Shown: positions 43,983 to 44,892 of the stretch, piece after piece | Position numbering within the stretch: position 1 is the first letter of the stretch | Layout of the letters: the number at the start of each line of letters is the position of its first letter | Assembly (NCBI GenBank): GCA_040389865.1 | Contig: JAZJZM010000007.1 | Span: 195,271 to 259,270 of the forward strand | Source of the DNA: Bacteroidota bacterium | GTDB lineage: Bacteria > Bacteroidota > Bacteroidia > 2-12-FULL-35-15 | Direction: 5' to 3' | Length of the DNA stretch: 64,000 bases | Notes under the pieces: model-generated | What the model saw: only the letters and a program-made list of their open reading frames with translations | What the model was told of the DNA's origin: nothing | Database searches by the model: none | Program-made: the position numbers and the translations under genes

Positions 43983-44579
43983 ATGGAAACGTTCAATAAT
44001 TTTTCCGCATTTCTGGAAGCTGACAATACCTTATTATCAGGTATAAAGTCATCGAAGCCAGCGCGTTCACATGCATCGCTCAAAAGAGTCGGTGCATCTA
44101 AAAAAACGCAAAAAAAAATAACATTGTTTATCATTGATGACGATATTATGTATCTGAAGGCATTAGAACATTCTATCGCCAATAAAATTAATTCGTTGGT
44201 TATCTATTTGTTTCAAACGGGAGAGGAGTGTTTGCAACAGATGAAATTGAAACCGGCCATCGTTATTTTGGATTATTATTTAAATACAAAGGTGGCGGAT
44301 GCTCAGAATGGTATAGTCGTTTTAAAACAAATAAAAAAAATAAACTCTAAGGCGAAAGTAATTATGTTATCCGGTCAGGATAGCTTAAATATTGCTGATG
44401 ATTGTATGGCAAATGGAGCGTATGATTATATTTCAAAAAGCGACACATCCTTTGTTAGAATAAATAATCTTATCTCAAATATTGTGGAAGATATTAAAAT
44501 TAATGATAGTTATAAAACCTTCCGATATGCTGTATTGGTGGTAATTTTAATACTAATGGCTTATGGTTTAATAAGTTGA
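43983..44579 (+). CDS. Response-regulator receiver domain protein with C-terminal transmembrane anchor
   Basis: ITLFIIDDD...VILDYYLN...KVIMLSG receiver; C-terminal YAVLVVILILMAYGLIS hydrophobic helix. Confidence 0.65.
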   Translation: METFNNFSAFLEADNTLLSGIKSSKPARSHASLKRVGASKKTQKKITLFIIDDDIMYLKALEHSIANKINSLVIYLFQTGEECLQQMKLKPAIVILDYYLNTKVADAQNGIVVLKQIKKINSKAKVIMLSGQDSLNIADDCMANGAYDYISKSDTSFVRINNLISNIVEDIKINDSYKTFRYAVLVVILILMAYGLIS

Positions 44580-44581
44580 TT

Positions 44582-44758
44582 GAATTAGGCAATAATGAAT
44601 AATTCAAACAACTGTTTGATATTACAAGGTGCGCTGTCACCCAGAGCCTGTCGAAGGGTGTGCGTAGGGCTGCCCACATACTTCGACAGGCTCAGTATGA
44701 CATTCGCACGATTTAGCCTGAATTCACATTAAAACGATTATAATCCATTGCCTAATTT
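44582..44758. mobile_element. MITE-like family-1 element with 12-bp terminal inverted repeats (GAATTAGGCAAT / ATTGCCTAATTT) and flanking 12-bp direct repeat AATAAGTTGATT (44570-44581 and 44759-44770)
   Basis: Direct reading; body contains GCGCTGTCACCCAGAGCCTGTCGAAG ... CTTCGACAGGCTCAGTATGAC hairpin; left flank includes stop codon of preceding receiver gene. Confidence 0.6.
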
Positions 44759-44892
44759 AATAAGTTGATTTGTAATTTGAACATGGAGGAATGTGAATCC
44801 CTGCTTTGTAAAACATTTTTCTTTAGAAATGAGTTTTACTATGTTGTATTAAAAACAATTACCTTTGTACGTATTTTAAATCCTCAGACACT

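Follow-up and report, generated by a model that had tools for sequence, protein, structure and literature searches.

Bacterial MITEs such as Correia/NEMIS of Neisseria, RUP of pneumococcus and MITEAba12 of Acinetobacter are small, non-coding elements with terminal inverted repeats that duplicate their target, occupy intergenic sites in many copies, possess internal structure and fall into subfamilies with shared ends. In Bacteroidota, MITEs have already been described in Porphyromonas gingivalis and Cardinium. Correia and RUP, which belong to the IS630/Tc1-derived type, duplicate TA. The MIC231/IS231 cassettes of Bacillus cereus (Firmicutes) are non-autonomous units with passenger genes, mobilised in trans by an IS4-family transposase and flanked by duplications of 10 to 12 bp. 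The REP/BIME repeats associated with RAYT are intergenic hairpins at gene 3' ends; REP elements have neither terminal inverted repeats nor a target duplication, and are characterised by a conserved palindrome and a GTAG-type head. Most IS families other than the IS4 subgroup duplicate 2 to 9 bp. Elements of that subgroup are mobilised by DDE transposases bearing the YREK motif. Members of the IS4 subgroup have ends of the form -AATR--------WTW----, in which the first nucleotide is relaxed, and generate direct repeats of 10 to 13 bp (De Palmenaer et al. 2008, PMC2266710 Table 1). Some of them show strong target specificity, the ends of IS231 start with CAT, and the related IS701, ISH3 and IS1634 families produce duplications of 4 to 6 bp (PMC2266710).

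The locus studied here lies in a 64-kb window (the whole stretch of DNA that was analysed) and contains a 177-bp element that is, with high confidence, a non-autonomous MITE of a family not described before, in uncultured freshwater Bacteroidota. The element has every structural feature by which MITEs are recognised, with the exception of an identified autonomous partner, and shares with the bacterial MITEs named above all the properties listed for them. No sequence relationship to described MITE families was detected in Rfam, by plasmid blastn or by a full-text literature search for the terminus, which returned irrelevant matches only. At 12 bp, the duplication is longer than is usual for bacterial MITEs, in contrast to the TA of Correia and RUP, and the target, of the same length, is palindromic and AT-rich. 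The family is mildly unusual in combining this duplication with a strictly palindromic AT-rich target at gene ends; in other respects it is unremarkable for its class and leaves the understanding of MITEs unchanged. The locus documents one transposition event in full (element, ends, duplication, empty site and target motif) in a lineage known only from metagenomes.

Structure of the element and its ends

The features of the locus are as follows.

43983 to 44579, + strand: response-regulator gene of 198 aa, receiver domain plus C-terminal hydrophobic tail (PF00072; orthologues)
44570 to 44581, + strand: target-site duplication, left copy, AATAAGTTGATT, 12 bp (holds TGA 44577-44579; single copy at the empty site of L124)
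44582 to 44758, + strand: intact non-coding element of 177 bp, subfamily A, very probably a MITE (full-length family matches; absent from six orthologous loci)
44582 to 44593, + strand: left terminal inverted repeat, GAATTAGGCAAT (direct reading, family alignment)
44629 to 44708, + strand: central long imperfect hairpin, GCTGTCACCCAGAGCCTGTCGAAGG... / ...CTTCGACAGGCTCAGTATGAC (subfamily A only; RNA and DNA folding)
44747 to 44758, + strand: right terminal inverted repeat, ATTGCCTAATTT; family consensus ATTGCCTAATTC (direct reading, family alignment)
44759 to 44770, + strand: target-site duplication, right copy, AATAAGTTGATT, 12 bp (direct reading; alignment A1)
44893 to 45954, + strand: rhodanese-domain (UPF0176) gene, downstream (synteny in relatives)

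A preliminary description of this DNA had proposed a 177-bp element at 44582-44758 with nearly perfect inverted ends, flanked by the same 12-mer on both sides, the left copy of which would include the stop codon of the upstream gene. Direct reading of the sequence agreed with this. Thus, GAATTAGGCAAT and ATTGCCTAATTT match at 11 of 12 positions as reverse complements, positions 2 to 12 being perfect; AATAAGTTGATT is present at both 44570-44581 and 44759-44770; and its left copy contains the TGA (44577-44579) of the gene at 43983-44579, whose reading frame ends GGT TTA ATA AGT TGA. In the family consensus, the ends GAATTAGGCAAT and ATTGCCTAATTC are inverted over all 12 positions. The first 13 bases match, as do 18 of 22 overall, the imperfect likeness of the left end to the right end extending to about position 22. 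The ends of the family take the form (G/A)AATTAGGCAAT...ATTGCCTAATT(C/T), and alignment of the copies together with their flanks revealed a sharp family boundary at GAATTAGGCAAT...ATTGCCTAATTC.

The exact 12-mer AATAAGTTGATT occurs twice in the window, each time abutting an element end. The identity between the flanks extends over 15 bp (TTTAATAAGTTGATT at 44567-44581 and 44756-44770), because the last three bases of the element, TTT, happen to equal the three bases preceding the target; in the family consensus the right end reads ...CTAATTC, and only 12 bp are truly duplicated. A degenerate 21-nucleotide terminus pattern gave five matches in the window against 0.99 expected. No ORF of at least 50 aa lies inside the element, and the single ORF call that overlaps it is a 59-aa minus-strand frame extending into the neighbouring gene.

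Empty sites in related genomes

The element begins 2 bp past the response-regulator stop codon, and the protein is unaltered by the insertion. The spacer between the response-regulator and rhodanese genes measures 313 bp in the window versus approximately 125 bp in relatives. Orthologues of the response regulator with 73 to 89% identity were recovered by protein search, and their contigs share the gene order hybrid kinase, Hpt, response regulator, rhodanese. Six syntenic loci from related uncultured Bacteroidota were shorter by exactly 189 bp, that is, 177 plus 12. Alignment A1 displayed a clean 189-bp gap in L116, L118, L119, L120 and L123, each with one diverged 12-mer (for instance, AATAAGCTGAAA); L117, a second contig with gene spacing like that of L116, was left out of the alignment.

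An empty site with a single AATAAGTTGATT had been named beforehand as a check on the proposed insertion. Such a site was found in L124, the closest relative found (response regulator 89% identical), whose locus reads ...GCTTATGGATT AATAAGTTGATT TTTAAATTTGAG..., with one identical 12-mer, directly preceded by GGATT, and no element. The proposed insertion with target-site duplication at the gene's 3' end is thus supported by six empty sites, together with the 12-bp duplications at other copies described below. From the comparison of these loci, the insertion at 44582 is younger than the split from all relatives sampled. The empty sites belong to related species or strains (response-regulator identity, 81 to 89%) and not to the same strain, and therefore they do not establish recent activity.

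Gene content varies around the conserved two-component cluster. AbiEii-domain genes lie downstream of the conserved block in L120 (3687-5461) and in L138 (17661-18341), and L120 also has a DUF7149 gene; the window carries different genes at these positions.

A dispersed family with three subfamilies

A BLAST search with the 177 bp against all retrieved loci yielded at least 17 matches on separate contigs of the MAG JAIOQD01 (Bacteroidetes bacterium LakeFargette_0920_ALND_MAG_35_6). Thirteen copies from this MAG and the metagenome copy L127 span element positions 1 to 176/177, with identities of 69 to 89%; L127 and L136 are two further copies, both from JGI lake metagenomes. The coding DNA of JAIOQD01 is approximately 68 to 77% identical to that of the window, and the MAG therefore represents a different species. 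A scan for the terminus pattern in one genome per species produced mostly chance matches in unrelated phyla, the true members being JAIOQD01 contigs only. Two short-read contigs of the same strain in Logan SRR26324623 (L001 and L002) end within the element, on both sides, as a dispersed repeat causes an assembly to do; the family thus breaks short-read assemblies of these Bacteroidota.

Including that of the window, 16 full-length copies were obtained, ranging in length from 173 to 201 bp; of the four copies in the window itself, one is intact and three are decayed. Subfamily A (the window copy, L087 and L127) measures 176 to 180 bp. Subfamily B (L042, L079, L066, L062 and L063; 173 to 184 bp) differs in the right half of the core, and subfamily C (L092, L097, L037, L020, L023 and L039; 194 to 201 bp) has about 21 bp extra. 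Conservation was highest at the ends, with a majority fraction of 0.94 in the first 28 bp and 0.93 in the last 25 bp, versus 0.85 in the interior.

Two loci contained compound arrangements. L136 (876-1251) is a 376-bp family copy with a nested hairpin element of approximately 190 bp, which has inverted ends, GGCTTTCTTATAAAAA / TTTTTATAAGAAAGCC, and TATAAAC on both flanks; this inner element probably belongs to another MITE family, one that duplicates 7 bp. In L023, another family terminus, GAATTAGGCAC, was observed at 1946-1965, 7 bp beyond the right end of the full copy, which suggests adjacent or nested insertions.

Twelve-base duplications and target preference

The 12-mers flanking the 16 full-length copies were identical in three cases, and matched at 11/12 positions in four and at 10/12 in three. 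The perfect duplications differ in sequence, being AATAAGTTGATT in the window, AAAAAATGTTTT in L042 and AATCATTTTATT in L066. As a control, the left flank of each of 14 copies was compared with the right flanks of all the others, giving 182 pairs. The mean identity of a copy's own flanks was 9.14/12, compared to 6.85/12 in the cross-copy control, and the excess was confined to register 12, with none in registers 8 to 11, 13 or 14. Perfect flanks were found in 3 of the 14 copies versus 0 of the 182 control pairs, only one of which reached 11/12; the two copies beyond the 14 both showed 11/12. The excess in register 12 and the absence of perfect control pairs show that the duplication is genuine and that its length is exactly 12 bp.

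The flank match differed among the subfamilies, with values of 12, 11 and 11 in A, 12, 10, 12, 9 and 10 in B, and 8, 6, 6, 11, 6 and 5 in C. Four old copies had flank identities no better than the control. The decay of the duplication follows subfamily divergence, as expected for insertions of differing age. The preliminary description had anticipated that other copies would have equally long duplications, and this expectation held when 15 independent full-length copies were tested; it had also considered that the 12-mer might be part of the repeat itself, which is contradicted by the variation of the flanking 12-mers from copy to copy.

The consensus of the target, AATWAATTWATT, is perfectly palindromic; 15/16 copies have A at position 1, and 15/16 have T at position 12. 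This target preference accounts for the high value of the cross-copy control. Cutting at a constant stagger within a symmetric site would be expected from a transposase acting as a symmetric dimer, and the 12-bp palindromic motif could be used in the hunt for that enzyme. All 16 full-length copies are intergenic, and about 10 of them lie within approximately 50 bp of a stop codon. This clustering at gene 3' ends is explained by the AATWAATTWATT motif being common right after stop codons. In one case, the element even provides the stop codon. Thus, in L029 (3110-3150), the adenylate kinase ORF (2560-3135) stops at a TAG within the left terminus of the element, AAATTAGG, so that the insertion replaced the original end of the gene.

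Central hairpin

The central hairpin at 44629-44708 has an RNA minimum free energy of -69 kcal/mol (z = -6.8), and the corresponding DNA fold gave z = -7.3. Subfamilies B and C have lost or replaced this hairpin. RNAalifold analysis of 15 copies returned terminal-repeat pairing only, with no covariation, and a conserved structural RNA was rejected on these grounds. A terminator scan revealed no hairpin followed by a T-tract. Rfam was searched with the whole window at gathering thresholds and with 44500-44850 at permissive E-values, and near the element it gave only hairpin matches far below threshold, the top one being AaHKsRNA41 (36 bits versus a threshold of 97). The sole match in the window at gathering threshold was a tRNA gene at 51939-52012. 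The termini are the best-conserved parts and the hairpin is not conserved; selection therefore acts on the termini, in keeping with a role in transposase binding, rather than on RNA structure.

Candidate transposase and alternative explanations

No transposase was detected among 20 window ORFs searched against Pfam. Neither an autonomous element nor a transposase with family termini was present among the matches listed for 113 genome and 13 metagenome stretches. Inverted terminus pairs more than 400 bp and up to 8 kb apart, with 12-bp flanks matching at 9/12 or better, were sought in approximately 130 loci from fragmented MAGs, and only MITE-sized units were recovered. The truncated copies and lone termini of L113, L029, L126 and L094 were accompanied by housekeeping genes or a type I restriction-modification locus, with no transposase. 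The viral-contig scan for family termini gave 0 matches, and plasmid blastn with the element gave none.

In the proposed mechanism, a transposase supplied in trans would recognise terminal inverted repeats of about 12 to 28 bp, (G/A)AATTAGGCAAT..., and would join the element ends to the target strands with a stagger of 12 bp, preferably at the AT-rich palindrome AATWAATTWATT; gap repair would then leave 12 bp duplicated. Our best guess, with roughly even chances of being right, is that this enzyme would be a DDE transposase of the IS4 subgroup of the IS4 family. The family ends, (G/A)AATT AGGCAATA ATG, fit the NAAT start and the relaxed first base of that subgroup; position 5 is T here and R there, so that GAATT matches four of the five signature positions, and the WTW motif is matched partially. 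The duplication of 12 bp falls within the range of 10 to 13 bp, and marked target specificity is a further likeness (PMC2266710), the comparison being drawn on the side of our family from its ends and duplication alone. The MIC231 cassettes resemble the family in being non-autonomous and flanked by duplications of similar length. However, the ends of IS231 start with CAT (PMC2266710) as opposed to (G/A)AAT, and the passenger genes and Firmicutes hosts of the cassettes set them apart.

That the element is a MITE as described here but is moved by a non-IS4 transposase, either from another long-duplication DDE family or an uncatalogued enzyme, is an alternative to which we give a little under an even chance. 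It is favoured by the lack of a parent element in any scan, among the matches listed, by the mismatch at one of the five signature positions and by the failure of the full-text search to place the terminus in any relevant paper. The length of the duplication argues the other way, since 12 bp sits in both the IS4-subgroup and the IS231 (10 to 12 bp) ranges, whereas the IS701, ISH3 and IS1634 families and most other IS make shorter ones, and so does the NAAT start with its relaxed first base. A transposase type uncatalogued for Bacteroidota, or an orphan family with copies recruited as structured 3'-end modules, seems unlikely. The combination of a 12-bp duplication, a strictly palindromic AATWAATTWATT target at stop codons, ends unlike those of any described IS and no autonomous copy in the collections scanned may have no described counterpart.

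The readings that dispense with transposition of a MITE are all far less probable. One of them, to which we give very little credence, takes the 12-mers as an att-like crossover core of site-specific recombination and the 177 bp as a small integrative module. Cross-copy flank identity of 57% and the existence of a consensus, AATWAATTWATT, are what such a core might leave; however, it would be identical at every copy and carried by the element, whereas the perfect 12-mers differ (AATAAGTTGATT, AAAAAATGTTTT and AATCATTTTATT), the window 12-mer exists once at the corresponding empty sites, and the terminal inverted repeats are not needed by integrative modules. The strong central hairpin and the intergenic position at a gene 3' end recall a REP/BIME-type palindrome mobilised by a tyrosine transposase of the RAYT (IS200/IS605-like) type, or else a vertically inherited structured RNA or terminator. 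This interpretation is more improbable still, as the element has the terminal inverted repeats and the 12-bp duplication that REP elements lack, and its palindrome is not conserved across subfamilies, the hairpin having disappeared or been replaced in B and C without compensatory changes. Moreover, Rfam gave no match near the gathering score, no T-tract terminator was found, and the element is missing from orthologous loci. Finally, chance association of inverted and direct repeats in AT-rich intergenic DNA has a negligible probability. The window is 37% GC, AT-rich 12-mers are frequent in it, and when one mismatch is tolerated, shuffled sequences contain the 12-mer pattern no more often than the window does; nevertheless, the exact 12-mer occurs only twice, precisely at the element ends, the terminus pattern is found about five times more often than expected, 15 more full-length copies exist elsewhere, and the gap in relatives is exactly 189 bp.

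Other family copies and repeats in the window

The decayed members of the family in the window are listed below.

37073 to 37186, + strand: old family copy with left (5') deletion, right end intact, left end degenerate (terminus match; L138 comparison)
47035 to 47070, + strand: two degenerate family termini back to back, TAATAAGGCAAT...ATTACCTAATAA (2 mismatches to the 21-nucleotide terminus pattern)
51104 to 51216, + strand: truncated or chimeric copy (family sequence in the left ~70 bp, then an unrelated hairpin)

The first of these had been delimited as 37068-37200 in the preliminary description, with an 11-bp perfect inverted repeat, and had been said to share the left terminus of the intact copy. 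The inverted repeat, AAATAGATTTA / TAAATCTATTT, is indeed present, but it lies outside the canonical family ends, and the terminus that is shared is the right one: the canonical right end ATTGCCTAATTC is found at 37175-37186, and a degenerate left end, GATTTAGGGAGG, at 37073-37084. The copy sits between response-regulator and histidine-kinase genes. A further-decayed remnant occupies the orthologous position in L138 (approximately 3330-3400), and therefore this insertion predates the split and is ancient and shared. By contrast, the left terminus attributed to the copy at 51104 was confirmed: the leftmost 22 bases are identical, and the shared left arm extends over about 70 bp. This copy lacks both a duplication and a canonical right end, and synteny with L138 ends there, so L138 gives no date for it.

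The back-to-back termini at 47035-47070 are probably a deletion remnant. They are included in a 1.4-kb segment (45955-47415) that is missing from L116 and L138, where the spacer from the rhodanese gene to the next ORF measures 84 bp versus 1462 bp in the window. The segment also includes another hairpin repeat (47151-47206) and three small minus-strand ORFs, two of them with a TRL domain.

A second intergenic repeat family is represented at 24653-24774, directly past the stop codon of a giant gene. It consists of nested inverted repeats (18 nucleotides at 83% and 24 nucleotides at 75%) and has the MITE-core motif GCTGTCA....GAGCYTGTCGAAG with the order of its two arms exchanged; the JAIOQD01 MAG contains an 83% match (L024, 4945-5014). 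The giant gene is the last of three tandem paralogues that fill positions 1-24612 with periods of approximately 7.3 to 9.5 kb. Its ORF (16618-24612) encodes 2664 aa, and the three genes contain internal repeat units of approximately 285 bp and 260 bp, with 60 to 77% identity.
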